From a virus (taxonomy: Duplodnaviria; Caudoviricetes): a stretch of 64,000 nucleotides of DNA. The notes beneath the pieces were generated by a model. It did not search any database. It saw nothing but the letters and a program-made list of their open reading frames with translations, and was not told the origin of the DNA. The position numbers were made by a program, and so were the translations under genes. The number at the start of each line of letters is the position of its first letter. The first letter of the stretch is position 1. The stretch covers positions 38,773 to 102,772 of IMG/VR virus record IMGVR_UViG_3300032038_000034; one strand, written 5' to 3'. Shown in pieces: positions 610 through 22,122 of this stretch.

Positions 610-1090
610 TTTAGACGTCGAGAACCTCCGAGTCAGTGACGTTAAAGTAATCGAAAAAGATGAGAGGCAGCGACCATTGCGTGTCCAGGAGCCTAGAGAT
701 CAAGTAGATACTATATATATGTGAATAGACACATACGTAGAGAGCCCCCGAGCCATTACGTAAAGACCGCCACCGTCCTCACGGTGTAATAATATGAGGC
801 CATTAGATCAAGTTTGCGATGTGCGAACCATGAGTCGGTGCTCCAGTCTGAGATGGTATCAAAAGATTGACACTGCGTTGTATATCAAGAATGCGAACAC
901 ATTCTATTGAGAACCCGCGAGTCAGTGATAGGGCAATGTGTTATTATTGAGGCAAAATAAAAAGTCGTTTCTAAGCGTTCGACATGCTTAAGTGGACCAG
1001 CTACCCACAAGAGCATAGAAAATGCGTCAGAATGGCTTAAAATAGCCTTAAATCGAGTGTTTTGACTGATCATCAAGACATTCACAAGTA
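610..1090 (+). ncRNA. Putative structured ncRNA or leader carrying four GA(A/G)C-N4-5-AG(T/C)C hairpins
   Basis: No + strand ORF. Motif copies at 621-635, 741-755, 824-836 and 910-924; three sit on stems of different sequence (e.g. GACGTCG/TGACGTT, TACGTAG/TTACGTA). Confidence 0.5.
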
Positions 1091-1095
1091 AGAAT

Positions 1096-1318
1096 CTTAG
1101 CGTGTGTGAGGTAAACTGTTGTGACACGGGTTCGACCCCCGTACGCTCCACTAACAATAATAAAATTGGGGCGTAATTGGTATAGAACGCAGTGGAAGTA
1201 AACACATTAAGCGCTTTGATATAAAAATTAACTGGCAATATTAACATTGCAGACTACACGGGCCTCCAGGAGGCAGCGTGAAGTCGGTGTACAGGCTACC
1301 TAAGTGCCTGTGAAACGA
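1096..1318 (+). ncRNA. ssrA: Circularly permuted (two-piece) tmRNA; predicted tag GNINIADYTGLQEAA*
   Basis: The 3' tRNA-like half (GAC, T-arm ACGGG-TTCGACC-CCCGT 1126-1142, ACGCTCC-A 1143-1150) precedes the 5' half (GGGGCGT 1168-1174). Together they form a 7-bp acceptor stem with G3:U70 and A73. Resume context TAACT-GGC; tag ORF 1234-1281 ends Ala-Ala-TGA. Outer boundaries are approximate. Confidence 0.88.
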
Positions 1319-1376
1319 GAGTGAGTTAAACTGGGCATCTTCGGATGCGGTGGGTTCGAGTCCCACACTCACTCCA
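1319..1376 (+). ncRNA. tRNA-like mini-RNA (no D stem; UUCG hairpin in place of the anticodon arm)
   Basis: 8-bp stem GAGTGAGT/ACTCACTC, hairpin GCATC-TTCG-GATGC, canonical T-arm GTGGG-TTCGAGT-CCCAC. Confidence 0.7.
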
Positions 1377-1440
1377 AAACGTCGTGAGACGCCGTATCTT
1401 TCGAATCTAATTACTTTTGCTCCACAGCGGTGGAGCATTT

Positions 1441-1514
1441 GGTTCCTTAGCTCAGCTGGATAGAGCAACAGATTTCTAATCTGTGGGTCAAAGGTTCGAA
1501 TCCTTTAGGAATCA
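1441..1514 (+). tRNA. tRNA-Arg (anticodon TCT)
   Basis: Full cloverleaf: GGTTCCT/AGGAATC, D arm GCTC..GAGC, anticodon arm ACAGA-TTTCTAA-TCTGT, T arm AAAGG-TTCGAAT-CCTTT. Confidence 0.95.
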
Positions 1515-1535
1515 CAAATTTAAAACATAATCAAT

Positions 1536-1931
1536 ATGAGAACAATATCCTACGATTATTTCTGTAACATCTCAGTAAAATTAGAAAAATTTGTTACAGA
1601 GAACCCAAAAGTATTAAGTTCACCAGGCAAATTGCAAAACAAATTACACCTTGCATCAAATAATTGTAAGGAATTACACAAAATTGCTCAACTTTATTGG
1701 AGTGGTTGTGTACCATTGAGAAGATTAGTATTGTCCATCATTGTTGTAAAATTTTGGAAAGATAGTGTAATATTTGAAAATTGTATGGGAGATTGTGCAG
1801 TATACCAATATATGGTAGCTAGATACGAACCACATCTGCCATATGCAAGGGCAGATATATACACAAAAGCAAAAAGCTTGGAAAAATTTATGTTTGATAC
1901 ATGGGAAAACAAGGATATCGAGAAATGTTGA
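1536..1931 (+). CDS. Hypothetical protein
   Basis: 131-aa ORF preceded by ATCAAT; overlaps the next gene. Confidence 0.7.
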   Translation: MRTISYDYFCNISVKLEKFVTENPKVLSSPGKLQNKLHLASNNCKELHKIAQLYWSGCVPLRRLVLSIIVVKFWKDSVIFENCMGDCAVYQYMVARYEPHLPYARADIYTKAKSLEKFMFDTWENKDIEKC

Positions 1932-2437
1932 GGGACAGATGTCCTAAAACAGTCGATGACGCTTTGAAATGGCAAAAAGCCAAAGATAAGTGGGTAGAAC
2001 ATACTTATTGTCATTTTGTACGTATTGTAGGTGACAAATACAGTTCTGAGAACAAATTGTTACAGAAAGCTCCTGAGAATAAGAAGGAGATTGTACGTGC
2101 AATTCTCGGTATTGTAAAAGGGAAACCGAAGAATTTCGTATTCGACAAAAGTATTGATTGGGACGACCTTACTGATGAAGAACGTGTATTTTGGAAGCGC
2201 GTTTCATCATGGGTATCGTGGTTCAGCTCTGAGTATGCATATATCCAAAATGCATACAATATCTCTAAAAAGGCAGGTAAAGATGATATGTCTATTAAAG
2301 TAGAAATCATCAATACCTACCTGAACGCATTTATGCCTTCAAAAAATGCTGATGAAGAAGAAAAACAAGCTAAATACGCATATGTAGATAGGCTTGTGAA
2401 TTATTTGATTCGGTGCTTAGAAAGGGATTATGTGTAG
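1925..2437 (+). CDS. Hypothetical protein
   Basis: ORF; the ATG at 1925 overlaps the upstream stop (alternative start 1901). Confidence 0.7.
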   Translation: MLRDRCPKTVDDALKWQKAKDKWVEHTYCHFVRIVGDKYSSENKLLQKAPENKKEIVRAILGIVKGKPKNFVFDKSIDWDDLTDEERVFWKRVSSWVSWFSSEYAYIQNAYNISKKAGKDDMSIKVEIINTYLNAFMPSKNADEEEKQAKYAYVDRLVNYLIRCLERDYV

Positions 2438-2852
2438 TATATTTTCCAAATATTTGTTACCCTTAGGGGTAAACGATGCAGATGCTAAGCCTAGCGTAGT
2501 TTATGATCATTTGCGTATCGCATACAATCAAGGCGCAAGGGGTATATTAGACAACGCTAACGTGTTTGCATTAGAGGACGGTGAAATTAATTGTGACGTG
2601 TTGTATGAAATCTGGAGGAATGAAGGCCTTCATGATGTTCTAACGTGGGTAAATAAAAAGATTACTCTACGTTTGGGAATCGCTGACTATCGAACGATAG
2701 GTGTTCGAATGCGAATTGCAACCGGTATGCTAAATAAATTAGTAAGTGAAGGACGTTTATCTAGAAAAATGAATATAACAATTCACAACAATTTCATTAC
2801 AGTGATCAATGGTGAGCTTTCTGCTATAAATACAGAAGACTTGCCATTTTAG
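2430..2852 (+). CDS. Hypothetical protein with SSB-like acidic C-terminal tip (EDLPF)
   Basis: 140-aa ORF coupled to the upstream gene; ends in TAG. Confidence 0.7.
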   Translation: MCSIFSKYLLPLGVNDADAKPSVVYDHLRIAYNQGARGILDNANVFALEDGEINCDVLYEIWRNEGLHDVLTWVNKKITLRLGIADYRTIGVRMRIATGMLNKLVSEGRLSRKMNITIHNNFITVINGELSAINTEDLPF

Positions 2853-2954
2853 CCCCGACAACCTAACCCGGATTGGTATTCCGGCGGGGCACTAAGCGTT
2901 TCGGTTCCGCGTACAGGAGTGACACCTTAATAAACCGAGTAAATTTGTTTGATT

Positions 2955-3518
2955 ATGAACCCACGTATTACCCCCGAGGAAGTTGGGATGATCAAAAGAG
3001 CTCAAGCAGGTGATGAATCTGCATTTAATGCGCTTTTCTATAGGTACAAAGGATTTGTGGAGAATCTCCTCTTTCACTATCTTAAAGATATGGATGAGGC
3101 CAAAGACGTTGCAAATATCGTCTTTTTGAAAGTGCATCAAAAACTCTCTAAATTCACAGCATATGACTCCTTTGGAGGATGGCTGAGAATTTTAACTAAT
3201 CGTACTGCTATTGACTATTTGCGTTCACAAGAAAACAAAAGAGTGGCACCTGATGCGAAAGAAGAAAGACTAACTTCAGACGTTCAGGGTTCTACTGAAG
3301 ATGACCTAGTCAACCATCTGACGTATAAAGAACTGCTACCTGAGTTCAACAAGTTGCCAGAGATCACTCGTAAGATCTTCACAATGTTCTATGTGAATAA
3401 TAATACCATAGAAGAGATTAGTAATTCGTTCAATCCGAAAATCCCAACAGGAACTATTAAGTCAACGTTGTCGAGAACTAGGAAAAAGTTAAAACAACGC
3501 TTAAAATTAAAAGTATGA
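2955..3518 (+). CDS. ECF-type RNA polymerase sigma-70 factor
   Basis: Region 2 motifs (AQAGDESAFNALF, DEAKDV..VFLKV, FGGWL..L..RTAIDYLR) and region 4 HTH (TIEEIS..IPTGTIKSTLSR). Confidence 0.92.
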   Translation: MNPRITPEEVGMIKRAQAGDESAFNALFYRYKGFVENLLFHYLKDMDEAKDVANIVFLKVHQKLSKFTAYDSFGGWLRILTNRTAIDYLRSQENKRVAPDAKEERLTSDVQGSTEDDLVNHLTYKELLPEFNKLPEITRKIFTMFYVNNNTIEEISNSFNPKIPTGTIKSTLSRTRKKLKQRLKLKV

Positions 3519-3928
3519 CATTCTTAATGTTCGTTCTCGGAATAATTATTATTGCCGGTATCGCACGATACAATCAAAGCAATAAGTTATTCTGGACCCT
3601 GTTCATAGCCTTTGTATTAGGCTTTGCAGGTAAGAAGCTCGTGAATGACACGTTCTTCTCGGAGAAGGAACAAAGTGGAACGTCGCTCAACCAGGCGTAC
3701 CCCACACAAGGGCTCGCAGTATCGTTAGACTCAAACATGTGTCTATTCACAAACGAAAACTGTTCAGCAACCGATGTGGAAACACAAAACCTTGTGAGTC
3801 AGGAATATACGCCTGATTTTGTTGAGCATACTCCCACTTTGAGTAATGTCCCTGGGGTGACTCAGTGGATAAACCTTCACATTCTTCCAAACCCACCAAA
3901 TGATATAATACCTCATGATACCTCATGA
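3515..3928 (+). CDS. Membrane protein with two N-terminal TM helices, coupled to the sigma gene
   Basis: Hydrophobic segments at aa ~2-17 and ~24-38; start overlaps the sigma stop codon. Confidence 0.75.
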   Translation: MTFLMFVLGIIIIAGIARYNQSNKLFWTLFIAFVLGFAGKKLVNDTFFSEKEQSGTSLNQAYPTQGLAVSLDSNMCLFTNENCSATDVETQNLVSQEYTPDFVEHTPTLSNVPGVTQWINLHILPNPPNDIIPHDTS

Positions 3929-4012
3929 AAGTATCATCTATCTACGTGGAATTGGTTATAGTTAAGCAGACTAACCACCTGCAAGTAATTAATTTATAAA
4001 CACATTATCAAA

Positions 4013-5395
4013 ATGGGTAAAAACACTAAAAGTGCTGCACAAGCTGCAGCAGAACAGGCTGCTCCCGCAACTACCACTCGTCTTGACGGAGGTAAGTTAG
4101 AGACTCCTGCAACAAAGGGTCTCTCACAGGGAGAAAAAGTAAACTACATCGCAGCCATTCAGACTGAGCGCGCATTCATGATGCAGAACGTCGAGAATCC
4201 GTCTCAGAGCATGATCGATGGCTTCACGTTGCTCGCACAGGCAACTATTCTCGATGTAGCAGTTGGCGAAATCGCCACTGGTAGAAGTGTTGTCGGAAAC
4301 ATTATTACCGCAAACGAGAACAATTACAAGGCGCTTCAGGCAATGGCTTTGGAGCGTGGTATTAAACTTCCTGAGTACAAGGCTCTGCCTGCTCCTACAG
4401 AAGAGCAGCTGAAGATTCACGGCCTTCTCGACATTAAGCCCGCCGACGCTAAGGTTCTTAACGTTGAAGCGAGTAACGTGTCTGACCGCGCAATCGAGCA
4501 GAAGAAGAAGGAGATCGCCGCTGTCGCCAAGGCAGTTGACAATCCTGCAGAGATAAAGACGAAGGAACAGTTGAAGGCCTCTTTGACCGCTATGCTGGTT
4601 AAGCCTATCACAGACGGTATCGACCGTCCTGATGCTCGTGTACAGCGCACTATCAAGTTCTATCGTGGTTATTTGACCATCCAGGCCAATGCCGCAGAGG
4701 ACAAGAAGACTGCTCTGGAGGAGATGAAGGCTAAGACTCGCCAGGATATGCTGAACGAGATTGCCGAGATCGTTGGTCCATGTCCGTTCTCTCTTAACGG
4801 TACCGCCTACTTTCTTCGCAAGCGTGCCATTGAGACCGGTTCTCCTATCTCCGCATTCTGCCTCTATCGTCGTAGTGCCGTTCCTGAAAAGGATAATGCC
4901 ATTGACGATTCTTACGTGGCTGACATAACACGTATTCTCTTGCTCTGGTCTTGCAACAGCCGTATCGCTGAATGCAATTCTATCCTGAAGGAGCAGAAGA
5001 AGCACGTTGAGAACGAGACTGGCGCTGCTAAGGCAGCTACAGAAGCCGCTATTCGTTACAACGAAGCAGCTATCGAAGAGATGAAGCAGGTTATCGAGTG
5101 GGTTAACAATCCTACATTCGATATCGTAGACAGTCTGGTTGAAGACTACAATGCAGAAGACCAGGAGTCTGAGAAGTGCAAACTTGCTCACCGCATCGTC
5201 TCTAACATCATGTCCACCTATTATCCTGAGATCGATATCAAGAAGGCAGACAAGGATAGCATGTTGAAGAATGTTCAGCAGCGTGCTGGTATCATTATCA
5301 ACATGTTCCGTGGTCCTCTTGCTCAGTCTATCTCTTACGCAGAGGGTAACCTGACGGATATCATTGTTTCTGAGGAGGAGAATGGAGGCGAATAA
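4013..5395 (+). CDS. Hypothetical alpha-helical protein (460 aa), probably highly expressed
   Basis: Long ORF with strong codon bias; CATTATCAAA-ATG start context identical to the gene at 76. Confidence 0.9.
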   Translation: MGKNTKSAAQAAAEQAAPATTTRLDGGKLETPATKGLSQGEKVNYIAAIQTERAFMMQNVENPSQSMIDGFTLLAQATILDVAVGEIATGRSVVGNIITANENNYKALQAMALERGIKLPEYKALPAPTEEQLKIHGLLDIKPADAKVLNVEASNVSDRAIEQKKKEIAAVAKAVDNPAEIKTKEQLKASLTAMLVKPITDGIDRPDARVQRTIKFYRGYLTIQANAAEDKKTALEEMKAKTRQDMLNEIAEIVGPCPFSLNGTAYFLRKRAIETGSPISAFCLYRRSAVPEKDNAIDDSYVADITRILLLWSCNSRIAECNSILKEQKKHVENETGAAKAATEAAIRYNEAAIEEMKQVIEWVNNPTFDIVDSLVEDYNAEDQESEKCKLAHRIVSNIMSTYYPEIDIKKADKDSMLKNVQQRAGIIINMFRGPLAQSISYAEGNLTDIIVSEEENGGE

Positions 5396-5424
5396 TATTT
5401 GTTCTCTCTAAATCTATCAAAGAC

Positions 5425-5886
5425 ATGAAATTAATAACAACGTTTCTGTGTGCGCTCGCATTTGCCATCGCAGGCATTTCGCTGGCGGATACAGAAGCAA
5501 ACAAGACGTTAGCTCTGAAACATCAGACGCTAAACGCAGCGACCATTACCGCTCAGCCGGTATTGCCTGCGCTGAATTTCGGGACTCGGGTGAATCCGAG
5601 TGTGAAAGACAAAACGGAGAAAGAGTATGTCCCATATGAGGTAATCGTAGTTAAGGACACTACTGCAAAAGCTCCGAAAGTAATAACCAAGAAGCTCAAG
5701 GGTAAGCGTACACCACCAAGGGCTACTGTAAAGCGTCAGGGATACAGCATTCCAGCTGCAATTCCTGATTCTGCAGTCCAAAACCAAGTACGTGAGGTTC
5801 GTGAGGAGCATACCTCGGACAGTGTTGGACCTCCTAAAGGTTCCATTTGCCTTATTGTCGACGATAAGGTAGTCTATAAACGATAA
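5425..5886 (+). CDS. Putative exported protein with signal peptide
   Basis: MKLITTFLCALAFAIAGISLA is a Sec-type signal sequence. Confidence 0.75.
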   Translation: MKLITTFLCALAFAIAGISLADTEANKTLALKHQTLNAATITAQPVLPALNFGTRVNPSVKDKTEKEYVPYEVIVVKDTTAKAPKVITKKLKGKRTPPRATVKRQGYSIPAAIPDSAVQNQVREVREEHTSDSVGPPKGSICLIVDDKVVYKR

Positions 5887-8030
5887 TCACTCCGGTGTGG
5901 GGGATGCATGAGGATTTGTGTGTCCCCCGGCCAGATTGGCAACACGTCAGAGCTATGTAAACGGTCTCATTAGCCGGGCTCGAAATAGTACAACTTGATC
6001 TGAGAATATGTTAGCCTGCTCAACAGGTGAGAAATGCAAAAGGTAGGATGAAATGCTGTAAGTTTATGCGTACTACATAACTGAATCGCTTACAGTAAGA
6101 GGACAGAGCGTTTGTATCAAGTCCTTTGGCCCTTGAGAACCGACTGGTGAAGGATAACCATAAAAACGCGTAAGACCCCTAGGGGCAAAATGATGCCGTA
6201 TTCGACACACTAACTGATGATACATAAGGTTAGCATAACGATACAGGAGTTGCAACATTAAGTTTGACACCAACCACTTAATGATGTATCAATAAGCTGT
6301 AGCTTAGTCCTTCATCCGGGCTCTTCGGAGGTCCAACCGGATGTGTAAGGGAGTGAAAATTATCTGAGTATATTCGCCTAGCAGAAGGTGTGACTGTCTG
6401 CGCCGTACCGTAACTACGGTCCTTGGAGAAATCCTTGCCGTTCGATTCGTGCACAACTCCGTTGAAGGGGTGCCAGGGATGGGGTACAGAGGAAAATATG
6501 ATGAAGATGACCGCCAGGCCTTGGTCGTTCATGCGGTATATAAAAGTAGAATGACTGCCAGTGGATGCAACACTTGAAGTTCTTGTGGTTCTGGAGCCCA
6601 AGGATGCGCGACTGAAGCCCGCGAAGAAAGGCTATTGTAAATGATAACACGCATTGGTAAGCGAATGTGATGTTTGAAATAGGAAATGCAATTAGATGAC
6701 AACTTGACAGTCAGACGTTTGTTTTGGGTGGTCGATTCGAAGCCTATACATTCCAGTATAGAGGGAGATCGCTTCCTTCGAAAGTAAGATGATAGTTAGA
6801 TGACGAACTGTATGCGATATACCGTCATACTTTATCGGGAGAAGATTCTAACGAAGATAATACGTAGTAGAAAACAAAAGAGATATTAACATGTTTAACA
6901 AAAATTGATGTTCCCAGCTGGTGGAAGGAATAAAGACAACTTTGTATGTATGCGCCATCACGCCTGGAGTTCGAGTGCCAACCGTTCCTGAGAAGCAAGT
7001 AGCAGAATGAGATACAACGATCGCTATCTAAGCTTGAGTCGCCAAAAGAGCAATCGAATAGGTAGCCGTGGGTAGCGACTTGAAGTAGGACAGCAAATCC
7101 TTTGTAGTCCATAAAGCAATATACATTTAATCGATGGGCAGCTTATCGTGAAGTTATTAGCCACCTCCCTGTCTCGGAGGGGTAAAGAAAATGAGTAATT
7201 AGTCTGTCGAAAGACAGTTCGCTGATGAAAAGGATTCGGCAAATATGAATCTTTAAGTGGGTGACAAGAAGCGATGTATGAGGTGAAATCCCTCCAGTAT
7301 TCGTGCACTATAAACAAATGAGGCAAGCACTTGCCAAGAGAAGAAAACAAGCCGTAGAGTTATTTGGTTCTGGAGCCTAGACTGTCCGATAACGAAGCAC
7401 GTCCCGTGCAATGACACACGCACGTCATGATGAAAAGGGAAAAGGTAAACAGTAGCGTACGCCTTAAAGTATGCGACATCAGAGAAAATCTGTGGTTAAG
7501 TAACAATCACTGTGTAATAACTCGTAGTAGCTTGGGAAATATACTTACAGAGAAATTACGCAATCTTTTGAGGGGTCCTATGAGCATTAGTTGGCCTAGC
7601 CAAAATTTTGCCAACGGACAAAAAGACGTCGGAACTAGTACGCAAGGAACGTATTCGATGCATGTTTTACGAAAAATAGACATAACTACATATGGTTCTA
7701 GTAAACTTAGTGATTGAATTCACATATTCAGCATTTAAAGCTTTAGCACCTGTTGATGATGATGGGCATGGATGATTCTACCGTTGAATCCCCGTTACAC
7801 GAGTTGAGCTTCATTTTAAGGAATATAGAAGTGTAACTAGTCGTCAATAAAAACGTGCTTCCCATTAGCACAGCAACTGAAAACATAATAGGTTGAACAA
7901 ACCGCATCCAGTAGAACCTCCGAGTCGGATGTAAAACTATTTTAGAGGTCACGGACACACCCAGAAGTGTCCATAGTTTTTAATCTTATCGTTGGTGGAT
8001 CAACCACGATATCAAACAGGATAAGAAAAA
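5887..8030 (+). ncRNA. Large (~2.1 kb) structured non-coding RNA region, unclassified
   Basis: No credible ORF in an otherwise gene-dense arm. Many stems with GNRA/UUCG loops: CATCCGG..CTC-TTCG-GAG..CCGGATG 6313-6343, CTGTC-GAAA-GACAG 7204-7217, T-loop-like GAGG-TGAAATC-CCTC 7280-7294, SRL-like 7627-7660. Strand inferred from flanking genes and tetraloop polarity. Confidence 0.65.
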
Positions 8031-8705
8031 ATGAGTAACGAAAAAACAATTGATGTAAACATCAAAACCGTATTGGCCGACAACCGTCAGGCCGCAAGTT
8101 TAATTGGCGCGCTGATTGGTAAGGCTTACGCCAAAGTAGAAAGCCGCGACTGCTGGCAGGGTGGTAAAGAAGGTTTCGAGAACGATAAAGCCAAGGCAAC
8201 AGCTCCTGGTGCAGCAGGTCTCATTCTCAATCGCTCTCCTCGCAAGTTCATGTTGAAGATTCAGGACATCCTCGGCGCCCAGATGTACGTACAGCCTCTG
8301 ACCAAGCAGGTCGGCGTTGTAGTAAATCTGGACAGTTCCAATGGTTCCTACGACATGTTCTTCCCGCTGGACGGCTCTAACCCCACTGTCGCTGAGAAGC
8401 CTATGGCAGAAGCCATTTCTGATGCTCTGAAGGGTGAAGGTCAGAACTTCTTCCTGGAGCCCTCTAAGGTTGTCGCTGTTGTCAACGAGGGTAACCGCGC
8501 TGAGGTCAAGAACATTGACACTCTGATCGGTGCTCTGAACAAGATGAAGCAGAACATCATCACGACAATCAACGAGAACGAGAAGAAGGCTATCGAGATC
8601 GATAAGGAGTGGGCCACTTCTAAGGTTAATGGTGTTGACATCAAGGATGTCGTAGCCAGCGCATCTAGTGCTGTACTCAACGTTCATACTGCTACTGAGG
8701 AATAG
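8031..8705 (+). CDS. Hypothetical protein
   Basis: 224-aa ORF with strong codon bias; ends in TAG. Confidence 0.85.
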   Translation: MSNEKTIDVNIKTVLADNRQAASLIGALIGKAYAKVESRDCWQGGKEGFENDKAKATAPGAAGLILNRSPRKFMLKIQDILGAQMYVQPLTKQVGVVVNLDSSNGSYDMFFPLDGSNPTVAEKPMAEAISDALKGEGQNFFLEPSKVVAVVNEGNRAEVKNIDTLIGALNKMKQNIITTINENEKKAIEIDKEWATSKVNGVDIKDVVASASSAVLNVHTATEE

Positions 8706-8707
8706 GT

Positions 8708-9298
8708 ATGAACAAAAAGACCCTCACAAACAGATCTATCCAGCTGATTGGTCTGTTGATGTTAGATGAAACAATTGCAGCCAAAGTTAAGGCTGCGGCT
8801 AGCGAGGGCAAATCATTTGAAATATTTGAAGTTGATGACACTACAGGAGTTATTACCCTGGGTGTCACTCGCTTCAGATGGTGGAATCAACTCATCGGAT
8901 GTCAGGTAAAACTGCCATTCACGAGTTGGGCACTTGCCGTATGGGATGCCCTTGTGAGTCTTTCTAAAAATGGCAACGCTGTTGCTATTGAAGAAGGGCT
9001 AAGTGTGGAAATCGCTAAGAAAGCACAGCGCGAAAGTGAGTTTAATTGGGTTGTGGAACGACTCAACGATATCTATGATCATGTAGTTAACAATAAGAAC
9101 GGTGGAGCGTCTCTCGAGGGAGACCCGGGGAAGTCAGGCCCAAGCGTAGTCGTTCGCGAACATGATCACGGAGAAACGGTGGTAAACGTACACATAAACA
9201 ACGAAACTCCTCGCGTGTTCCGCTTTCCTGACGCAACAGGTAAAGCATTTCTTGACTTAGAAATGGGTATTGTAAACGTAACACGATCGCGGAAATAA
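8708..9298 (+). CDS. Hypothetical protein
   Basis: 196-aa ORF starting 2 nt after the upstream stop. Confidence 0.8.
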   Translation: MNKKTLTNRSIQLIGLLMLDETIAAKVKAAASEGKSFEIFEVDDTTGVITLGVTRFRWWNQLIGCQVKLPFTSWALAVWDALVSLSKNGNAVAIEEGLSVEIAKKAQRESEFNWVVERLNDIYDHVVNNKNGGASLEGDPGKSGPSVVVREHDHGETVVNVHINNETPRVFRFPDATGKAFLDLEMGIVNVTRSRK

Positions 9299-9467: not shown

Positions 9468-9572
9468 AGAGATTTGTTTTGCTTTGTATTAATTTGTTTT
9501 GATGCAAGGTACGTGTAGGTAATCTCGAATTCAACTAATTAACGGATGTCTAACTAAATCAAATGTTTATAT

Positions 9573-10115: not shown

Positions 10116-10126
10116 AAAATAATCCC

Positions 10127-12231: not shown

Positions 12232-12258
12232 TAGTATTAACTAAAGAACCTATGAGTC

Positions 12259-14151: not shown

Positions 14152-14181
14152 TAACCAACTTAGAGCCCCCGAGTCAATAGT

Positions 14182-14748
14182 ATGATTATTGAAGTAAATA
14201 CAAGACTTCTGGATGCAAATCCAGAACTGAATTCAAATCAATTATTGTTCCTAAGTATTGTATTGGATAAGAATCAGCCAAAATATCAAGACGTCCAAAA
14301 GGTCATCAACCTTGTCAGTGATGACGATATACAGTACTTAGTCGACCAACATTTGGTCACCTCGATAGAGAGAGGTGATTCAGTTACATATGAGCCAACG
14401 GAAGAGTTAAAGCAAAGTATAGCACCTAAGAAGGACTATTTTGACCTCTTCTACGATATGTATCCCGTGTATGTTGTTCGAGCAGATGGCAGTAAATCTT
14501 ATTTGCGTGCGAACGTAAACAAGTGTCGTCATTTCTTTAACCTCAAATGTGGTCGTAGCTCAGCTATGGCAGAACATATCATCAAGTGTCTGGATTATGA
14601 AATATCTAAACGGATGCGTGAAGGTAGCCTTAGTTATATGATGACTATGTGGAATTGGTTAACACGTAGTCAATGGGAGGCCATTGAAGATGAAATGAAC
14701 GACAAGAAGCAAACACCAGTAAACTCTTATGGAACAGAACTTATCTAA
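14182..14748 (+). CDS. Putative replication initiation or helicase-loader protein
   Basis: Lies between the polymerase and helicase; wHTH-like N-terminus with 'FDLFYDMYP' and 'WNWL..SQWE' segments typical of phage replisome organisers. Confidence 0.6.
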   Translation: MIIEVNTRLLDANPELNSNQLLFLSIVLDKNQPKYQDVQKVINLVSDDDIQYLVDQHLVTSIERGDSVTYEPTEELKQSIAPKKDYFDLFYDMYPVYVVRADGSKSYLRANVNKCRHFFNLKCGRSSAMAEHIIKCLDYEISKRMREGSLSYMMTMWNWLTRSQWEAIEDEMNDKKQTPVNSYGTELI

Positions 14749-15652
14749 CATACGTCCAATGAGCGTTGTTGCTCAAGAAGCAATCAACTATATCAAAGGA
14801 CGAAGAGAGCATAACATTGTTTCTCTTAAAACTAGATGGGAAAAGTTTAATAAGCAGTGTATGGGAGGTATAGAACCAAATACCGTTTACACCATAGCTG
14901 GTATATCTGGAACTGGTAAGTCGAGCTGGGTTAATAGTTTGACAACCGATATAATTGATTTGAATCCAACTGAAGACATAGTCATTCTAAACTTCTCGTT
15001 AGAGATGGTTGGATTTAGGCAAGTAGGAAGGACGCTTTCGAGTAAACTTCGTAAAACGACTTCTGACTTGTATAGTTCTGAAAAGGACCTGGATGACGAA
15101 ACGTTTAAACGTGTTATTGCAGTATCTAATCAGCTGAAGGAATATCCTATATATTTTGTGGATAACCCAAGCACTCCTTCAGAGGTAGAAAAAACTATAA
15201 AGAATTTCTATGAAACGTATGTAAAGGGTTCTAAGAAACACTTTATTATCGTATACGATCACACGTTGCTGACTAAACAAGTAGGTTCTGTAATAGAGAC
15301 TACTTCGGAACTTGAGCGAGTATTTATACAAGCTAAAAAGTATCCGATGACATCAGTGATTCAGATTGCACAAATGAATAGAAATATCGAGTCTTCAGAA
15401 AGGATAAATAACCCATCGAGTCATTACCCGATGCGAAGTGATTTATCGTCATCTGATGCGATGTTTCAGGCAAGTGATTACGTGCTTGTCATGCATAGAC
15501 CAGAGATATTGAACATTCAAGAGTACGGACCAAACCGTTTACCTACACAAAATAAGGTTTACATGCATATGTTGAAAAACAGAGACGCAGGCAAACCTTG
15601 TATTCTTGAATTCGAGAACGATTTGATGTACAATAACCTGATCGAACGTTAA
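14729..15652 (+). CDS. dnaB: DnaB-like (SF4) replicative helicase
   Basis: Walker A AGISGTGKS, FSLEM, IVYDH, AQMNR, SDL..S..MFQASD, KNR. Confidence 0.93.
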   Translation: MEQNLSNIRPMSVVAQEAINYIKGRREHNIVSLKTRWEKFNKQCMGGIEPNTVYTIAGISGTGKSSWVNSLTTDIIDLNPTEDIVILNFSLEMVGFRQVGRTLSSKLRKTTSDLYSSEKDLDDETFKRVIAVSNQLKEYPIYFVDNPSTPSEVEKTIKNFYETYVKGSKKHFIIVYDHTLLTKQVGSVIETTSELERVFIQAKKYPMTSVIQIAQMNRNIESSERINNPSSHYPMRSDLSSSDAMFQASDYVLVMHRPEILNIQEYGPNRLPTQNKVYMHMLKNRDAGKPCILEFENDLMYNNLIER

Positions 15653-15693
15653 TGCTCAGATGACAAGTATTAACAATTAAAATAGGCTGATTT

Positions 15694-16161
15694 ATGATTA
15701 CGACATATACTTTTGGTAAGAAGAATAATAATAGTTACAATCCCTTTCACACTAGTAGCAAACCCAACTATTCTAAGATTCTTGATGATATCATTATTGC
15801 TGATGTAATTAAGAAGAATAGTTATCTGTTCAATAAGACGGACAATACGGCAGCTATCGACACCACTCTCCTGGGTGCATCGTACGATTCTGATTTCGAT
15901 AAGGCTGTTAAGTTCCTTGCCAATTACAAGAAGCCGAAGAAGAATTATATTCTCCCCTTCGCGCTGAATAAAATGTATACTCTTTCTGACGGTACTCCCA
16001 TTATCTTCTACGATGATGAGATTCAGATTGGTTTTGATACGTATAGCTACGCTGATTTCAGCGACATTTCGTTCATTAACGCTCTGACACCTAAGAAAAA
16101 GAAGATTATTATTGATATCTATACGTTTGGCAACGCTAATATCAATATTAATATTCTTTAA
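15694..16161 (+). CDS. Hypothetical protein
   Basis: 155-aa ORF within the replication operon. Confidence 0.8.
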   Translation: MITTYTFGKKNNNSYNPFHTSSKPNYSKILDDIIIADVIKKNSYLFNKTDNTAAIDTTLLGASYDSDFDKAVKFLANYKKPKKNYILPFALNKMYTLSDGTPIIFYDDEIQIGFDTYSYADFSDISFINALTPKKKKIIIDIYTFGNANININIL

Positions 16162-16182
16162 TCATTAGAACTATAAGTCAAT

Positions 16183-16929
16183 ATGATAACATTACCTACT
16201 CAAAAAGTTCCTGCAACTTCAACTAATCCGCAGTATTTAATCTTATACGGTCTTCCTAAGAGCGGTAAGACGAGTGCTGTAGCTCAGTTGGAGAATAATC
16301 TCATCATAGACCTTGAAGGCGGATCTAAGTTTATTGATGCGCTAGCTGTTCAGGCACGTACCATCAATGATCTTGGAGAGATTGCACAAGCCATTCGAGC
16401 TAAGAACGATGAGGTAGGACATAATTTTTATAGACACATTACTATCGACAATGCTACACGTCTCGAAGATATTTGTATGAGCTACGCGTGCACACTTTAC
16501 AGACAGACCGAATTAGGAAAGAACTGGAAAGGAAACGATGTTACAACACTTGCACGAGGAGCAGGTTATAAGTATTTAAGAGATGCAGTAAAGAAGGTAA
16601 TTGATATGTTCAAGGACCTTTGTGACGAATTTATTCTGATAGGACACGTTAAAGATTCTATTACTGATAAGGATGGACAAGAAGTCAATGCTAGAGAAAT
16701 CGACCTTGTTGGAAAACTCGGACGAATTGTATGCGGACTCGCAGATGCGGTCGGCTACGTTTATCGAAAAGAAAATGAGACTCATGTCTCGTTTAAAGGC
16801 GGCGATGGAGACTCCGTCCTCGAAGCAAGAGCGAAACATCTTGCGGGAAAAGATATCATCATTTCTACAGGAAATGAAGACGGATCAATAACAACCTATT
16901 GGGATCGTGTTTACAAACCAGAAGTATAA
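16183..16929 (+). CDS. Sak4-like / AAA_24 P-loop ATPase (single-strand annealing)
   Basis: YGLPKSGKTS, IIDLEGGS, ITIDN, ILIGH, ADAVGY; adjacent to the SSB gene. Confidence 0.85.
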   Translation: MITLPTQKVPATSTNPQYLILYGLPKSGKTSAVAQLENNLIIDLEGGSKFIDALAVQARTINDLGEIAQAIRAKNDEVGHNFYRHITIDNATRLEDICMSYACTLYRQTELGKNWKGNDVTTLARGAGYKYLRDAVKKVIDMFKDLCDEFILIGHVKDSITDKDGQEVNAREIDLVGKLGRIVCGLADAVGYVYRKENETHVSFKGGDGDSVLEARAKHLAGKDIIISTGNEDGSITTYWDRVYKPEV

Positions 16930-16946
16930 CTCAGAGTTTAAGAATT

Positions 16947-17555
16947 ATGTATAGTACAAAAACAGCAACAACAAATAACCAGGAGTTTAATAGCTCCTAT
17001 ATGCCTGTAGGCATCAACGAGAATGTAACCTTGAAAGAGGTTAATGTAAACAAAACACCTAATGGTCGTGACTTCTTGGAGATAATCTTTGAGAATGAGA
17101 ACGGTCAGACAGCAACTATGACAGAGTGGAAGAACGAAAAGAATCAGTGGATTGCTACCGACGAAGATTTGCAGCGTCGTGACGATGCACAGTTTGGTCG
17201 TATTCTGCAGGTTATAGATGCAGCAAACGGTAACCATACCGACTTCGAAGGAAGTTCGTTTGTGGAGATGATTAACTGGGTAAAAGCTCAGCTTGAACCA
17301 GCTACAAATCCTGCAAACATGCGTCAAGGTATGCGTTTGAAGGTTGTTTACGACAAGAAGGGTTATACGAAAGTTAGCTCTCTTGGTACTTTTGTTGAAC
17401 CTATGAGTGTAGAAGAGTCTCAGATTAAGCTTTGGAAGAATGATCTTCTTGAGCGTCCTGTTGTAGCAGATGTTGAACCTGCTGCAGATCCGCTCGGTGT
17501 AACTACCGCTCCGGTGACTGAGACTTCAACAGGTGCTGACGACCTGCCTTTTTGA
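16947..17555 (+). CDS. Single-stranded DNA-binding protein
   Basis: Beta-rich core and acidic tail ending DDLPF; start placed at MYSTKTA (ATG 16947). Confidence 0.75.
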   Translation: MYSTKTATTNNQEFNSSYMPVGINENVTLKEVNVNKTPNGRDFLEIIFENENGQTATMTEWKNEKNQWIATDEDLQRRDDAQFGRILQVIDAANGNHTDFEGSSFVEMINWVKAQLEPATNPANMRQGMRLKVVYDKKGYTKVSSLGTFVEPMSVEESQIKLWKNDLLERPVVADVEPAADPLGVTTAPVTETSTGADDLPF

Positions 17556-17652
17556 TTCGTGGTATTATAAACCACGAAAAATGTATATCGGAAACGGTTT
17601 ACTAGAGCAAATGGTCAGTGGTGGAGGTTGACTTCTGGTCAACCCTTGGTTA

Positions 17653-17747
17653 AGTATAGATGCTAAAGCGGCCGAGTACCCTAGAGGGAAAGCATTTGAC
17701 GTCTAAGGCGTGCGGTGCACACAGAGGTTCGAGTCCTCTCTATACTA
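17653..17747 (+). ncRNA. tRNA-like element with expanded, non-canonical interior
   Basis: Perfect AGTATAG/CTATACT acceptor stem plus A, and T-arm AGAGG-TTCGAGT-CCTCT. The interior has ATGCT/AGCAT, ACGTC-TAA-GGCGT and GTGC-GGT-GCAC hairpins. Confidence 0.6.
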
Positions 17748-17768
17748 CAATAATTTAAATTAAGTACT

Positions 17769-18047
17769 ATGATATCAGAAAAGTTAAGAAGATGTTCTAA
17801 TTGTGGAAGGTTCATGAATGAAGGTTATCTTCTTGGGGTTTATTACGCCTGTAGTGATAAGTGTAGAAATAAAATTTACAGAAAACATAATGGCGTAAAA
17901 ACAGACGAAGAGGCTAAAATAATGTACCTGAAAGACTGTTATATGCTTGAAGATAAGGACATCGAAGGACTTACTTCTGAGCAAATATCAGAGAAATACA
18001 AAGATTGTGAAATATCAGATGATGTATTTTGGACACAGTGGTGGTAA
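17769..18047 (+). CDS. Small Zn-finger-like protein
   Basis: CSNC...CSDKC motif. Confidence 0.7.
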   Translation: MISEKLRRCSNCGRFMNEGYLLGVYYACSDKCRNKIYRKHNGVKTDEEAKIMYLKDCYMLEDKDIEGLTSEQISEKYKDCEISDDVFWTQWW

Positions 18048-18053
18048 ATAATT

Positions 18054-18191
18054 ATGAAGAAAAAAGATTATCACAAACCAGGATATTGGAAAGACTGGTA
18101 TTGGAACAAAGGCGGACGAGAAAAAGTCCAAGCAACACGTTATATTGCAGAATATGAACGTGAAAAAAGGAAAAATGGTTGTGAGGCTTAA
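18054..18191 (+). CDS. Small basic protein (45 aa, MKKKDYHKPGYWKDWYW...), not in the ORF track
   Basis: Translated by hand; fills the gap after 18047. Confidence 0.55.
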   Translation: MKKKDYHKPGYWKDWYWNKGGREKVQATRYIAEYEREKRKNGCEA

Positions 18192-18245
18192 AAGTAGGAA
18201 TAAAGCTAGTGCGCGCGCTAAGTGGTTCGAATCCACCCACAACTT
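18177..18245 (+). ncRNA. tRNA-like element with a tetraloop in place of the anticodon loop
   Basis: GGTTGTG/CACAACT acceptor, GCTT/AAGC D stem, TAGTG-CGCG-CGCTA, GTGG-TTCGAAT-CCAC. Confidence 0.55.
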
Positions 18246-18268
18246 CAATACAAAAGAGCTTATAAGCC

Positions 18269-19243
18269 ATGTATAGTACAAAAACAGCTATTACAATGAG
18301 TCTTAGAGACTTGTTGGATAAAGTGGATGACTATACTATCTATTCTTATTATCTTGGAGCATTTAAGCCCGGAAAACTTATGAATAGTCCTTTACGAAGT
18401 GATGATAGAATGCCGTCTTTTGCTATATTTCCTACAAAAGATGGTGCACTCCTATTCAAAGACCACGGTACTGGAATAGCGGGAAACGCATTGAAGTTCT
18501 TAAAGCTTTATAGAGACATTCAAACAAGAGAAGAACTTGAACGAGAATTGTTGAGGATTGTACGAAAAGTAAATCCAAACTTAAACGTTGTTACTAAGAC
18601 TAATGGTCATTTGGTAACATCGGGATTACCAGCAGATATCGGAATAGTTCGTCAACCATTTACAGAAGTTGATAAACAGTATTGGAAGCAATTCCATATA
18701 TCTATTGATACGTTGAAGAAATTCAATGTGTTTAGCATTAAATATTTTCTTTGTAATAGAGTCGTCAGAGGAACCTACAAAGAAACTAGTCCTATGTATG
18801 CATATAAGGTTTATGATCGATTTAAGATTTATAGACCTTTAGCTTCAAAGTATACTAAATGGCGTACCAATCTGACAAATAGGCACGTTCAGGGATTAGC
18901 CGAGTTGCCCGAAGCAGGCGGAGATCTACTTATAATCACAAAGTCTTTAAAAGATGTTATGTGTTTATATGAGATGGGTTTTAATGCTATATCGCCTTCT
19001 AGTGAGACTACATTTATCCCAGAAGATATATTGAAGTCTCTACGTAGTAAGTGGAAGAAGATTGTTATACTGTTCGATCGAGATGCAACGGGGATGAAAA
19101 AAGCTCGAGAGTATAGTAAACAATATAAGATGGATGCTATATTTGTCCATAAGAAGTTTAAATCGAAAGATATTTCAGACGCAGTAAAAAACAATAATTT
19201 TAACACGGTCAAAGATTGGCTGTATAAAACGTTGAACATATGA
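18269..19243 (+). CDS. dnaG: DnaG-type primase
   Basis: N-terminal SPLR.D..PSF...FKDHG segment and Toprim-like IITKSLKDVM...LFDRDATG. Confidence 0.88.
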   Translation: MYSTKTAITMSLRDLLDKVDDYTIYSYYLGAFKPGKLMNSPLRSDDRMPSFAIFPTKDGALLFKDHGTGIAGNALKFLKLYRDIQTREELERELLRIVRKVNPNLNVVTKTNGHLVTSGLPADIGIVRQPFTEVDKQYWKQFHISIDTLKKFNVFSIKYFLCNRVVRGTYKETSPMYAYKVYDRFKIYRPLASKYTKWRTNLTNRHVQGLAELPEAGGDLLIITKSLKDVMCLYEMGFNAISPSSETTFIPEDILKSLRSKWKKIVILFDRDATGMKKAREYSKQYKMDAIFVHKKFKSKDISDAVKNNNFNTVKDWLYKTLNI

Positions 19244-19494
19244 TAGAGACATTGATCCTCGGCATAGTGATTGGTATCGTAGGTACTATTGCTGGAGCCG
19301 CATATGCAGCATATAAGTGGAGTAAAAACCCATATGTGCTGAAAAAGTTTAATAGTGGTTATAGTGTACTTGCTTGCGATATTGGTTTCGAAGGAGATCC
19401 GAATGGCTACATTGGATTGAGAAAGAACAATAAAATAATCGCAGGCATTAAATACAACGATAACGGAGTTACAGATATCGTATATGATATCTAA
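19240..19494 (+). CDS. Small membrane protein
   Basis: N-terminal TM helix; overlaps both neighbours. Confidence 0.7.
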   Translation: MIETLILGIVIGIVGTIAGAAYAAYKWSKNPYVLKKFNSGYSVLACDIGFEGDPNGYIGLRKNNKIIAGIKYNDNGVTDIVYDI

Positions 19495-19879
19495 ATCTAA
19501 AAGCAGAGTTAAGAATGCGACAGCAGTCGATAAGTATGGAATCCATTTCAGGAGCAAACTCGAACTCTATACTTATGAAGCTTTTATGGATGCAGGGATA
19601 CCTGTAAAATATGAGCCAAAGCATTTTACTCTGTTACCTAAGTTCGAGTATCTTGGAGAGAAAATACGTCCTATTACATATCTTCCAGACTTTATAGGCA
19701 GAGGATTTGTAGTAGAATGTAAAGGTCTTATGGGAGATTCGTTTCCTCTAAGATACAAACTCTTCAAGTATTATTTAAAGCGTCATCATTCCAAGATGCG
19801 CTGCTACCTGGTGAGAAATCATAAACAGGTAGATGAAATGATCCAAGAACTAAAAAGTCAGAGACAAGATGGAAAATAA
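19484..19879 (+). CDS. PD-(D/E)xK endonuclease (DUF1064 / T7 endonuclease I-like resolvase)
   Basis: FRSKLE...YEP...YLPDF...VVECKG. Confidence 0.88.
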   Translation: MISKSKSRVKNATAVDKYGIHFRSKLELYTYEAFMDAGIPVKYEPKHFTLLPKFEYLGEKIRPITYLPDFIGRGFVVECKGLMGDSFPLRYKLFKYYLKRHHSKMRCYLVRNHKQVDEMIQELKSQRQDGK

Positions 19880-20639
19880 ATTTTCGTTTATAAAAAACGG
19901 TGACAAGATTATGCCAGTGCCTTCGGGTATTAATTACTCATTAAAGGCTGGTAAAGTTTATGAACTTCACAATACACCAATGGATGAGCCATGTTTATCT
20001 GAAATAGACTCGTTTATTTTCCCTGAGGACTATTATCTTAGTGACTCAGATGAGAAGTTTATGAACAAGATTGTTACTACATACAGAAAGACTGATAAAC
20101 TTACCACAGGTGTATTGTTTAGTGGTCTTAAAGGTAGCGGTAAGACTCTTATGGCTAAAGCAACAGCTATGAGATCTAACCTTCCCATCATTGTAATTAG
20201 CGGTTCTGTACGAGCAAATGACATAGAATCATTCTTTTCACAAGTAAGTGATGACGTATGTATCATTATGGATGAACTTGACAAAAACTGGTATCTGCCA
20301 GCATTGTTAGGATTCTTCGATGGTGTTAAACCTACGTGTAAAAAGTTGATTCTTTGCACTGCAAACGACGAACAAGATATCAATAAGTACTTAAATGATC
20401 GTTGCTCTCGTATACGTTATAAGCGTACATTTAAGAGTATCGATAAGAATGTAGCTAAAACTGTATTGTTGAAGTATTTCGATACAGAAGAGGCCGCAGA
20501 TGGTGCTGCTGAGTTTTGTTGTAGTGCAATGGGTGTAGTATCGTACGATAATGTTGTTATCTTCGGAGAAGAACATCAAAATAACCCTAATGAATCTTTT
20601 GATGATATACTTAAAGATCTTAACATTGCACACAAATGA
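19869..20639 (+). CDS. AAA+ ATPase
   Basis: GLKGSGKT, IIMDELDK, TAN, DRCSRIRY. Confidence 0.88.
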   Translation: MENKFSFIKNGDKIMPVPSGINYSLKAGKVYELHNTPMDEPCLSEIDSFIFPEDYYLSDSDEKFMNKIVTTYRKTDKLTTGVLFSGLKGSGKTLMAKATAMRSNLPIIVISGSVRANDIESFFSQVSDDVCIIMDELDKNWYLPALLGFFDGVKPTCKKLILCTANDEQDINKYLNDRCSRIRYKRTFKSIDKNVAKTVLLKYFDTEEAADGAAEFCCSAMGVVSYDNVVIFGEEHQNNPNESFDDILKDLNIAHK

Positions 20640-21631
20640 TGGACATATCAGTTCCTTATTACGAAGATAAAACTAGAATATCCAATTCGAACATAGGCTG
20701 GTTCCTAAACAAGGGGCCAGCCTTTTTACATAAGATGCTAACAGAAGATGTTCCTGAAGAAAAGAATCCAGTACTCGAAAGAGGAACGATGATTCATGAA
20801 TATATTCTGCAACCTGAAGAGTTCCGAAAAGACTATGTGATCTGGGACAAAAGTAGGCCTACTTCTGCACAGCAGGAGAAGTTCTGTCAGGCACTTGCAT
20901 CTTCACTAGAAATAGAGCCAAATAGAGCCATTCTAGACGCTTATAAACAAGCATATAGTACAGCAGGAAAGTCAGAAGACAAAATGCTATCAGAAGGCCT
21001 TAAAATAGCCTCTACGTTGAAGGATTATATTGACTTCCTGAAAGAAAATGATGGAAGGATTATGATCTCCCATTGGGATTATCAGATGCTTGAGAAAATC
21101 AAGCATAATATACGCAATCATAAACTTGCTTGGAACATAATAGATGCACCATTAAGGGCAACTGAATTATGTGATTACGAAGCACACCACGAATTCCATA
21201 TAAATTGGGAGTGGGAAATGCAAGTAGCATGCAAGTCTCTATTAGACGGTCTTACTCTTGATTTTAAGAATAAGAAAGCTATTATCTATGACTTAAAGAC
21301 TACAGCCAAGCTGTGGCACTTTGAGGATAGTATAGAGATGTATGATTACTGTAGACAGCTTGCATATTATACAATGGCTGTTAAATGGTATCTCAAGAAC
21401 GAATGTAACGAAAACACAGATGATTGGACATTTGAATATTATATCATTGGAATCGACACTACTGGATCGTATGAAATACGTGTATTCAGGATTGAAGAGT
21501 TCATGGTGCAAAGCCGCAACTATGTCATACAGGACGCGTTGACGGATATTGCTTGGCACCAAACCAATGATAAGTGGGAACATAGTAGAAGTTATTATGA
21601 AGGCGATGGCTCAGAGTCATTGAACCTATGA
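20636..21631 (+). CDS. PD-(D/E)xK exonuclease (RecE / ExoVIII-like)
   Basis: ISNS, GTMIHEYILQP, KSLLD, YDLKTT, YCRQLAYY. Confidence 0.88.
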   Translation: MMDISVPYYEDKTRISNSNIGWFLNKGPAFLHKMLTEDVPEEKNPVLERGTMIHEYILQPEEFRKDYVIWDKSRPTSAQQEKFCQALASSLEIEPNRAILDAYKQAYSTAGKSEDKMLSEGLKIASTLKDYIDFLKENDGRIMISHWDYQMLEKIKHNIRNHKLAWNIIDAPLRATELCDYEAHHEFHINWEWEMQVACKSLLDGLTLDFKNKKAIIYDLKTTAKLWHFEDSIEMYDYCRQLAYYTMAVKWYLKNECNENTDDWTFEYYIIGIDTTGSYEIRVFRIEEFMVQSRNYVIQDALTDIAWHQTNDKWEHSRSYYEGDGSESLNL

Positions 21632-22122
21632 GTACACAGATGAAACTAATAATCCCCCTTCTTGATAAAAATATCACGAAGGAGGATTTAAGTAGTAAAG
21701 CAGGATTTGTAGATGCATATATATTTGATAAAAACAGACCTGCAATAGACAATTGTATATTTTTAATGTACGATATGTCAAAAACAACAGCTGAAACCGG
21801 AAAGCGAGAACACAATTTCGCAAAATGTACAAATATTCACAGCATTAAAGTAGAATATATTGGCGGCAAACCATTTAAAATTTTTGCTTTTAAAATAATT
21901 GGCAAAGATGTAAAGGATTTGTTAAACGGTTATAAGCCAAAACAGTATAACAATGTAGTTCGTATATTATCGTTCTGGAGAGGTTATGATGATGATGTCA
22001 ATAAAACAATGTTGATAAATAAACCAGAACGAATTAGTCGTGACTGGAAGACAATTCCAGAATACGACTACCGCCCATCGCCACAGATGGGTTTTGGAAT
22101 AAATAAAGGCGAGGCTCTGTAA
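21628..22122 (+). CDS. Hypothetical protein
   Basis: 164-aa ORF, last gene of the + arm. Confidence 0.8.
   Translation: MSTQMKLIIPLLDKNITKEDLSSKAGFVDAYIFDKNRPAIDNCIFLMYDMSKTTAETGKREHNFAKCTNIHSIKVEYIGGKPFKIFAFKIIGKDVKDLLNGYKPKQYNNVVRILSFWRGYDDDVNKTMLINKPERISRDWKTIPEYDYRPSPQMGFGINKGEAL

Follow-up and report, generated by a model that had tools for sequence, protein, structure and literature searches.

The right-hand 64 kb of the 102,772-bp genome of a crAss-like phage from the rumen (IMG/VR record IMGVR_UViG_3300032038_000034, positions 38,773 to 102,772; hereafter the window, numbered from its first nucleotide) carries a small, doubly bulged hairpin at the start codons of eight genes in the rightward replication module, and five further copies of it in non-coding sequence. 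Sequence comparison with related phages confirms this hairpin as a genuine structured element, conserved and with strong covariation, which delimits a regulon of replication genes within one crAss-like subfamily. We consider it probable that the element operates at the RNA level and is read by a trans-acting factor. The DNA polymerase encoded in the window shares 78% identity with that of cr272_1 (Suoliviridae, Oafivirinae), and a fragment with 99% identity is present in IMG/VR. Sense-strand genes span approximately positions 76-22122 of the window, and antisense late genes occupy the remainder. A search of the literature returned no description of the motif.

The anatomy of the element was established by comparing 80 related loci taken around the polymerase gene. 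The element is 12-15 nucleotides (nt) long and has the form 5'-G-A-N-N-Y, a loop of 2-5 nt, R-A-N'-N'-C-3', with base pairs between positions 1-13, 3-12, 4-11 and 5-9 and with positions 2 and 10 unpaired. Each strand of the resulting two-fold symmetric helix contains one invariant unpaired A, and the loop is unconstrained in sequence. When the unpaired positions were tallied, the A,A combination occurred at 212 sense sites versus 32 antisense sites, with all remaining combinations at background. Isolated cores have no predicted stability; the outer stems that surround the non-coding copies do fold.

The pairs of this helix covary extensively. The sequence-only reading from which this analysis started had described covariation at two pairs, and had argued from it for a folded single-stranded structure rather than a double-stranded DNA site. 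The comparison with related loci bears out the covariation and widens it to all four pairs, among which every Watson-Crick type is found, and the preference for a folded structure is likewise upheld by the different base pairs used among copies of one genome and by the variable loop length. At the polymerase start, pairs 3-12 and 4-11 are both exchanged in some lineages relative to the common form, and at the 14182 gene pair 1-13 goes from G-C to U-A and A-U among relatives. Within the window genome alone, pair 4-11 takes the forms C-G, U-A, A-U and G-C at different genes, so that the constraint is on complementarity only and the identity of the pair is not read. When sites were picked by their outer G/C and inner C/G letters and by nothing else, Watson-Crick pairing at both inner pairs was found in 123 of 255 sense sites, compared to 11 of 110 antisense controls. 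A second pairing test used 80 sequences from upstream of seven genes, for which the four invariant letters were the sole selection criterion. In these, 90% of cells paired, versus 73% in shuffles, none of which (0 of 500) reached the observed value, and 59 double-sided changes were present where 17 +/- 3 were expected; slid registers paired in just 10-33%.

The element is also strongly enriched and strand-biased. The pattern as originally written in the sequence-only reading matched 15 times, against 4.8 +/- 2.1 matches in shuffled sequences, none of which (0 of 100) reached that count. A tighter pattern yielded 13 matches across the whole 102.8-kb genome, every one of them on the + strand, and a pattern based on structure alone yielded 27 + strand matches in window positions 528-22122, compared to 8.2 +/- 3.1 (maximum 17) in 200 dinucleotide shuffles. 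The ten best matches of a covariance model to the window were all on the + strand, and of the 12 matches that scored highest genome-wide, 11 were sense-strand copies within window positions 619-21629. Scanning 1.07 Mb of related phage loci with position-and-pair scoring, and defining strong copies as those with a score of at least 15, we identified 293 strong copies in the sense orientation and 6 in the antisense orientation. The base immediately 3' of the hairpin is mostly a purine. The sole strong antisense match in the window (15062-15081, minus strand, score 17.0, 4-nt loop) lies inside the helicase open reading frame (ORF) and probably arose by chance.

The copies listed in the sequence-only reading were all recovered at the positions given (622, 742, 825, 911, 7914, 12246, 14163, 16168, 18256 and 21614), together with additional copies at 19847, 19246 and 16921 and an uncertain one at 20915; all lie on the + strand. 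The polymerase copy (12246-12258, 25.1 bits) abuts ATG 12259, 14 nt 3' of a tRNA-Leu. The copy of the ScpB-like 14182 gene (14163-14175), in which pair 3-12 is G-U, precedes ATG 14182 by 6 nt, and that of the AAA_24/Sak4-like ATPase (16168-16179) precedes ATG 16183 by 3 nt. At the single-stranded DNA-binding protein (SSB) gene, the weak copy that had been reported does exist (16934-16946, abutting ATG 16947), requiring three G-U pairs, but the site orthologous to those of relatives is a different one, located 14 nt before the same ATG (16921-16932, with pair 4-11 as G-C), so that the two together cover 16921-16946. The primase copy (18256-18268, 20.9 bits) abuts ATG 18269 and follows a tRNA-like T-arm/acceptor remnant. 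At the 19240 gene, the hairpin (19246-19258, pair 4-11 as A-U, 12.7 bits) occupies codons 2-6 of an 84-amino-acid gene (19240-19494), and its counterpart in cr272_1 abuts an ATG. Two copies are embedded in the 3' end of the upstream gene: 19847-19859 (20.7 bits), within the DUF1064 gene and 9 nt 5' of ATG 19869 of an AAA ATPase, and 21614-21626 (18.7 bits), within the exonuclease gene and 1 nt 5' of ATG 21628, the latter with its two strands swapped relative to the common form. The uncertain copy (20915-20929, 5-nt loop) lies inside the exonuclease ORF, where one relative breaks a pair, and it is probably kept by a conserved peptide. A further match at 3451 was discarded as a coding coincidence, for it encodes a conserved peptide of sigma region 4.

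Across these eight genes the hairpin is located between -21 and +18 relative to the start codon, and the association with replication-gene starts that had been proposed from the window alone extends to related phages. Of the 293 strong sense copies, 195 are no more than 40 nt away from a mapped orthologous start, and 190 of those 195 fall at seven mapped replication genes. The remaining sense copies correspond mostly to the cluster 5' of the transfer-messenger RNA (tmRNA) gene, to the orthologue of copy 7914 or to the site internal to the exonuclease gene, and control genes present random AT-rich matches only. Conservation at orthologous start codons, which had been suggested as a check on the proposal, was examined in these loci, and the orthologous sites are kept, with pairing held through double changes. 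The distance between hairpin and ATG is 0 for the polymerase in nearly all relatives and mostly 0 for the primase; it ranges among relatives from 2 to 8 nt for the 14182 gene, from -4 to 6 nt for the Sak4-like gene and from 9 to 21 nt for SSB. In some relatives the ATG of the Sak4-like gene falls within the hairpin loop, and some copies sit inside an overlapping upstream gene.

The motif is present in the Oafivirinae (cr272_1, cr130_1 and a Bohxovirus) and in related rumen phages. No copies were detected in the Loutivirinae cr4_1 and cr52_1, which share the same synteny, and neither the same genes nor the gap 5' of the tmRNA in these two phages yielded an alternative shared motif. Motif-less Loutivirinae present a different, perfect 7-bp hairpin immediately 5' of the ScpB-like ATG (L089, 13975-14001; L090, 13945-13969), in the spot occupied in Oafivirinae by the bulged mini-hairpin.

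The existence of a multi-copy non-coding version of the motif, also noted from the window sequence, was confirmed: it is conserved and it appears in contigs from RNA libraries. Four copies (cores starting at 622, 742, 825 and 911) occupy the interval that separates the 76-594 ORF from a permuted tmRNA gene. The first (609-647, core 622-634, score 21.4) is at the apex of a 7+4-bp outer stem that is predicted to fold, and the second (734-762, core 742-754, score 21.2) at the apex of a 7-bp outer stem with a fold z of -4.4. The third (825-836, score 13.9) is a weaker 12-nt form with a 2-nt loop that has orthologues in cr272_1 and other relatives. The fourth (898-941, core 911-923, score 22.7) is flanked by complementary arms that were read by eye, and the minimum-free-energy fold favours a different pairing for them. 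Outer stems vary from copy to copy. The position of the cluster, which comprises 3-5 copies in relatives, is kept in phages with differing flanks, including some whose upstream protein is 37-40% identical. A fifth non-coding copy (7904-7932, core 7914-7926), on a 6-bp outer stem, lies near the 3' end of a 2.1-kb region devoid of ORFs, with a terminator-like hairpin downstream of it at 7953-7972; it has orthologues in more than 10 relatives, in which the outer stems covary. Contigs from four rumen RNA libraries, belonging to four studies, span 77-1241, 282-1110 and 477-1154 and run continuously with the upstream ORF, and RNA-library contigs also traverse gene-proximal copies such as those at 16168 and 16921. 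These contigs revealed no separate small RNA and no usable transcript ends or depth ranking.

Taken together, these data are compatible with a model in which the mini-hairpin would act on sense transcripts of the rightward replication module. A single-stranded molecule, and specifically RNA, is the more plausible carrier of the signal, because a stem of 4 bp interrupted by two bulges is unable to extrude from duplex DNA, and yet its pairing is maintained at weak gene-proximal copies. Since the core is too weak to fold stably alone and carries invariant unpaired adenines, we infer a trans-acting factor that would recognise the shape of the helix plus its two unpaired As, most simply a homodimeric RNA-binding protein given the two-fold symmetry of the hairpin. 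Binding of this reader would gate translation initiation, as the hairpin lies within the footprint of an initiating ribosome, and most likely would repress it, which would couple the synthesis of the polymerase, a helicase partner, the recombinase-like ATPase, SSB, the primase and accessory proteins. The five non-coding copies, presented on stable outer stems, would bind the same factor. In phage phi14:2 all of the rightward replicative module belongs to a single early class and early non-coding RNAs are abundant (bioRxiv 10.1101/2020.03.07.982082), which is in keeping with this model. That the element is an RNA operator through which a probably dimeric trans-acting protein controls translation initiation of the replication module is a proposition to which we give even chances. 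The fuller circuit, in which a phage homodimer of Oafivirinae-type crAss-like phages reads the double-bulged-A mini-helix and gates translation of the whole replisome in a host phylum where initiation is not driven by Shine-Dalgarno sites, with pre-folded copies on early non-coding RNAs beside the tmRNA buffering or timing the free protein, is put forward tentatively and may well not hold in this form.

Several observations weigh against translational control as the explanation for the hairpin. Two genomes (G001 and G003) retain three cluster hairpins 5' of the tmRNA and have zero copies at replication genes, and a third, complete genome (G002) has the tmRNA with neither the cluster nor the gene copies; the converse, gene copies in the absence of a cluster, was not seen in any of the genomes compared. 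The cluster is therefore the part that persists more and, on this comparative evidence, must have its own role, so that control at start codons is not the sole function of the hairpin and perhaps not the ancestral one. Copy 7914, moreover, sits 105 nt from the next ATG, beyond operator range. Wobble evidence for folding of the sense strand is thin, with two or three G-U and one A-C at true sites in sparse counts, and the contigs indicate presence in RNA libraries, which is neither proof of transcription nor a record of 5' ends. Finally, the virion RNA polymerase of crAss-like phages, for which no promoter motif is known, transcribes in phi14:2 exactly the replication module, and no binding protein for the hairpin was found by Pfam on 27 window ORFs, by phyletic profiles or by structure models. 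The proposal that a repressor is titrated by a multi-copy sponge RNA thus survives in part: the non-coding cluster is real, conserved and contained in RNA-library contigs, but its persistence in genomes that have no gene copies argues against a pure decoy, and the sponge role in its pure form is doubtful.

The phi14:2 polymerase brings forward a reading of the hairpin as a promoter or initiation signal, which the RNA polymerase packaged in the virion, or another one under phage direction, would recognise while the DNA is transiently single-stranded. Positions 622-923 would then be tandem strong promoters for the tmRNA, the tRNA and the early operon, and internal promoters at the gene-proximal copies would yield mRNAs with very short leaders or none. 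In phi14:2 the virion polymerase that transcribes the replicative module works on denatured DNA and prefers single-stranded templates in vitro (bioRxiv 10.1101/2020.03.07.982082). The strict strand specificity of the element and its restriction to the rightward block suit such a promoter, as do the purine that usually follows the hairpin and the gap of 0 at the polymerase and primase, from which a leaderless AUG would result; the nested pattern of genomes with both kinds of copy, with the cluster only or with neither is also what essential main and optional internal promoters would produce. Against it, the two-bulge stem is unable to extrude from duplex DNA even though pairing matters at weak gene-proximal copies, the start codon falls inside the loop in some relatives and the hairpin lies 3' of the ATG at 19246, and the gap to the ATG varies between 0 and 21 nt. 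Furthermore, a terminator-like hairpin follows copy 7914 by approximately 30 nt, no copy occurs in the rightward genes that precede the cluster over 12 kb, RNA-library contigs read through several copies, and some copies lie within overlapping upstream genes. We regard a promoter function as unlikely on balance, though deserving of attention. A more specific version, in which G-A-A-C would be the -35 box of an ECF-sigma promoter, was rejected, as no conserved -10 box is found at 16-17 nt and the transcript would exclude the start codon.

The evidence for RNA structure counts equally for a processing or decay site recognised by a structure-specific endoribonuclease, as in the case of T4 RegB, T7 RNase III sites or Cas6-type enzymes. 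Together with the tRNA-like elements, such sites would divide up the polycistronic early RNA as well as the precursor of the non-coding RNA and tmRNA. Copies do lie at cistron boundaries, beside tRNA or tRNA-like elements 5' of the polymerase and primase, the cluster persists in the absence of gene-proximal copies, and one RNA-library contig starts at 14167, within hairpin 14163-14175, a weak indication given that contig ends are unreliable. However, no nuclease candidate was found, other contigs pass copies 16168 and 16921 uncut, and the presence of a tmRNA without the cluster in G002 and the Loutivirinae means that tmRNA maturation in itself does not require the cluster. Processing is accordingly a reading that we find rather improbable. 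Least probable by far is a duplex-DNA site composed of two direct G-A-R-Y-C half-sites for a transcription factor or an origin-binding protein, with the cluster acting as iterons. Many copies do look like a directly repeated pentamer whose period is 8 nt, and non-coding DNA contains a cluster of four, but off the R-Y pattern the half-sites are complementary rather than identical (with C-G, U-A, A-U and G-C inner pairs), position 1 covaries with 13 and not with 9, the spacer ranges from 2 to 5 nt, sense copies outnumber antisense ones 293:6 and copies follow start codons. A site of this kind is excluded by the combination of freely covarying pairs, a loop of variable length and the offset register.

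By analogy, an RNA operator of the kind proposed here would be RegA-like in scope, MS2/PP7-like in recognition logic and Csr-like in its non-coding copies, and it lacks defining features of each. In T4 RegA control, considered along with T4 gp43 and gp32 autoregulation, a lytic phage likewise positions a single recognition element where translation starts on many replication-gene mRNAs, and their synthesis can thereby be coordinated. T4 RegA sites, however, are unstructured and AU-rich, in contrast with the structured, bulged and covarying hairpin described here, which also has a multi-copy non-coding version and occurs in a phage whose host phylum is not reliant on Shine-Dalgarno pairing. Pfam searches of 27 sense-strand ORFs of the window detected no RegA-family protein. 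The operators of the MS2 and PP7 coat proteins are also small start-codon hairpins recognised through shape and unpaired adenines, with pairs free to covary, and a symmetric coat dimer reads the two adenines. Those operators place one adenine in the loop and the other in a bulge, on a longer stem, and an RNA-phage genome contains a single site. The element described here has a symmetric pair of bulges and a free loop, and its DNA-phage genome contains at least 13 sites; no coat-like reader was identified.

The CsrA/RsmA and CsrB/RsmZ systems share with the element a motif at translation start regions and pre-folded multiple copies in non-coding RNA, here represented by the four copies at 622-923 and the one at 7914. 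The CsrB-like label given to these copies by the sequence-only reading can be retained on that account as an analogy, and not beyond it. The Csr motif is a GGA (A-N-G-G-A) exposed in hairpin loops and overlying the ribosome-binding site, which has no equivalent in the hairpin, where the loop is variable and conservation falls on the stem ends and the pair of bulged As; no CsrA-family protein was detected by Pfam in the ORFs scanned, which included neither ORFs outside the window nor host genes; and a cluster persisting in relatives without mRNA sites is unexpected for a pure Csr sponge. Phage N4 also injects its own RNA polymerase and presents clustered small hairpins with 3-nt loops in its early region as promoters for that enzyme. 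In the N4 hairpins the stem consists of 5-7 perfect pairs, the loop bases are conserved and transcription starts at a fixed distance, as opposed to four pairs, two bulges, a free 2-5-nt loop, a gap of 0-21 nt to the ATG and possible overlap with the start codon, and the crAss polymerase belongs to the two-barrel family, distinct from the N4 enzyme. Lambda boxB/nut sites, of which an operon start has one or two, are defined by a 5-bp stem capped by a conserved GNRA-like pentaloop, unlike the free loop and the at least 13 sites, mostly at start codons, of the hairpin. Rfam models, RAGATH-20 and RAGATH-22 included, did not match any copy at E<=1 over 1-23000, and over 560-1080 at E<=10 the single match was a 14.6-bit chance hit to a snoRNA model.

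The search for a reader relied in part on phyletic profiles. In a presence profile covering 10 kb on either side of the polymerase, no gene tracks the motif. A wider profile, which compared cr272_1, cr52_1 and cr4_1 with six IMG/VR genomes, each represented by approximately 35-40 kb, points weakly to ORFs 15694 and 21628 and to a 78-amino-acid basic ORF upstream of the window (genome position 35320) as candidate readers; these ORFs fit best, yet motif-less phages have positional counterparts of them, and they were not retained. The model of the 21628 protein (predicted local distance difference test score, pLDDT, 88.7) does not clearly match any known fold, its best Foldseek match being ribosomal uL23 (E 0.05), with a VIA-align Z of at most 4.9 and a profile match to DnaA domain I at E 0.2, all of them weak. 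The model of the 15694 protein is poor (pLDDT 63), and the ESM Atlas returned no match for the basic proteins 10424 and 11167.

Pfam assigned several genes of the + strand: an ECF-type sigma factor (2955-3518; Sigma70 regions 2 and 4), which is kept in Oafivirinae and Loutivirinae, a DnaB-like helicase (14729-15652), the AAA_24 (Sak4-like) ATPase (16183-16929), a Toprim primase (18269-19243), a DUF1064 protein (19484-19879), an AAA ATPase (19869-20639) and a PDDEXK exonuclease (20636-21631); PHROGs put a name to SSB and to no other gene. The circularly permuted phage tmRNA (1061-1372; Rfam RF04321, 53.7 bits versus a gathering score of 47) encodes a tag peptide of 15 residues according to ARAGORN, is followed 3' by a tRNA-Arg at 1441-1515, and is also present in relatives with or without the hairpin cluster. 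The sense-strand stretch without ORFs that holds copy 7914 (5887-8030, 2.1 kb) is conserved across Suoliviridae subfamilies, with a gap of equal size and placement in cr272_1, cr4_1 and cr52_1, and may be a long non-coding RNA resembling those of phi14:2.

Other features recur near early genes. The first 20 coding bases of the SSB (16947-16966) and primase (18269-18288) genes are identical, encoding the peptide MYSTKTA, and this shared start is retained in nearly all relatives, including those that have no hairpins. Sequences resembling a T-arm and acceptor precede the primase (18170-18245) and the 17769 gene (17700-17760), where ARAGORN calls no tRNA, and the tRNA-Leu upstream of the polymerase gene is a true tRNA; these tRNA-like elements may serve as punctuation of the early transcript. 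A T-A-G-T-A-T-T-A-A-C-like box recurs approximately 15-25 nt 5' of ATGs (12232-12245, 15665-15675 and many more sense genes), and a T-A-T-C-A-A box lies immediately 5' of several other early ATGs; both boxes are also found in Loutivirinae and may be a promoter or leader signal separate from the hairpin. In the late arm, the minus-strand genes (22171-64000) are broken up under the standard code. Because TAG read-through yields open frames of 5487, 2450 and 1446 codons and TGA read-through brings no change, TAG is very probably reassigned, in the late arm only.

Crassvirales are among the most abundant gut viruses. We know of no described case of post-transcriptional control in this group and, to our knowledge, little has been established about translation control without Shine-Dalgarno sites in phages infecting Bacteroidota. 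The motif marks out a compact regulon, of at least eight genes, for which the effects of mutations can be clearly predicted, and it provides a bait with which its reader could be found. Should the promoter reading be true, the hairpin would instead reveal the promoter of the crAss virion RNA polymerase.

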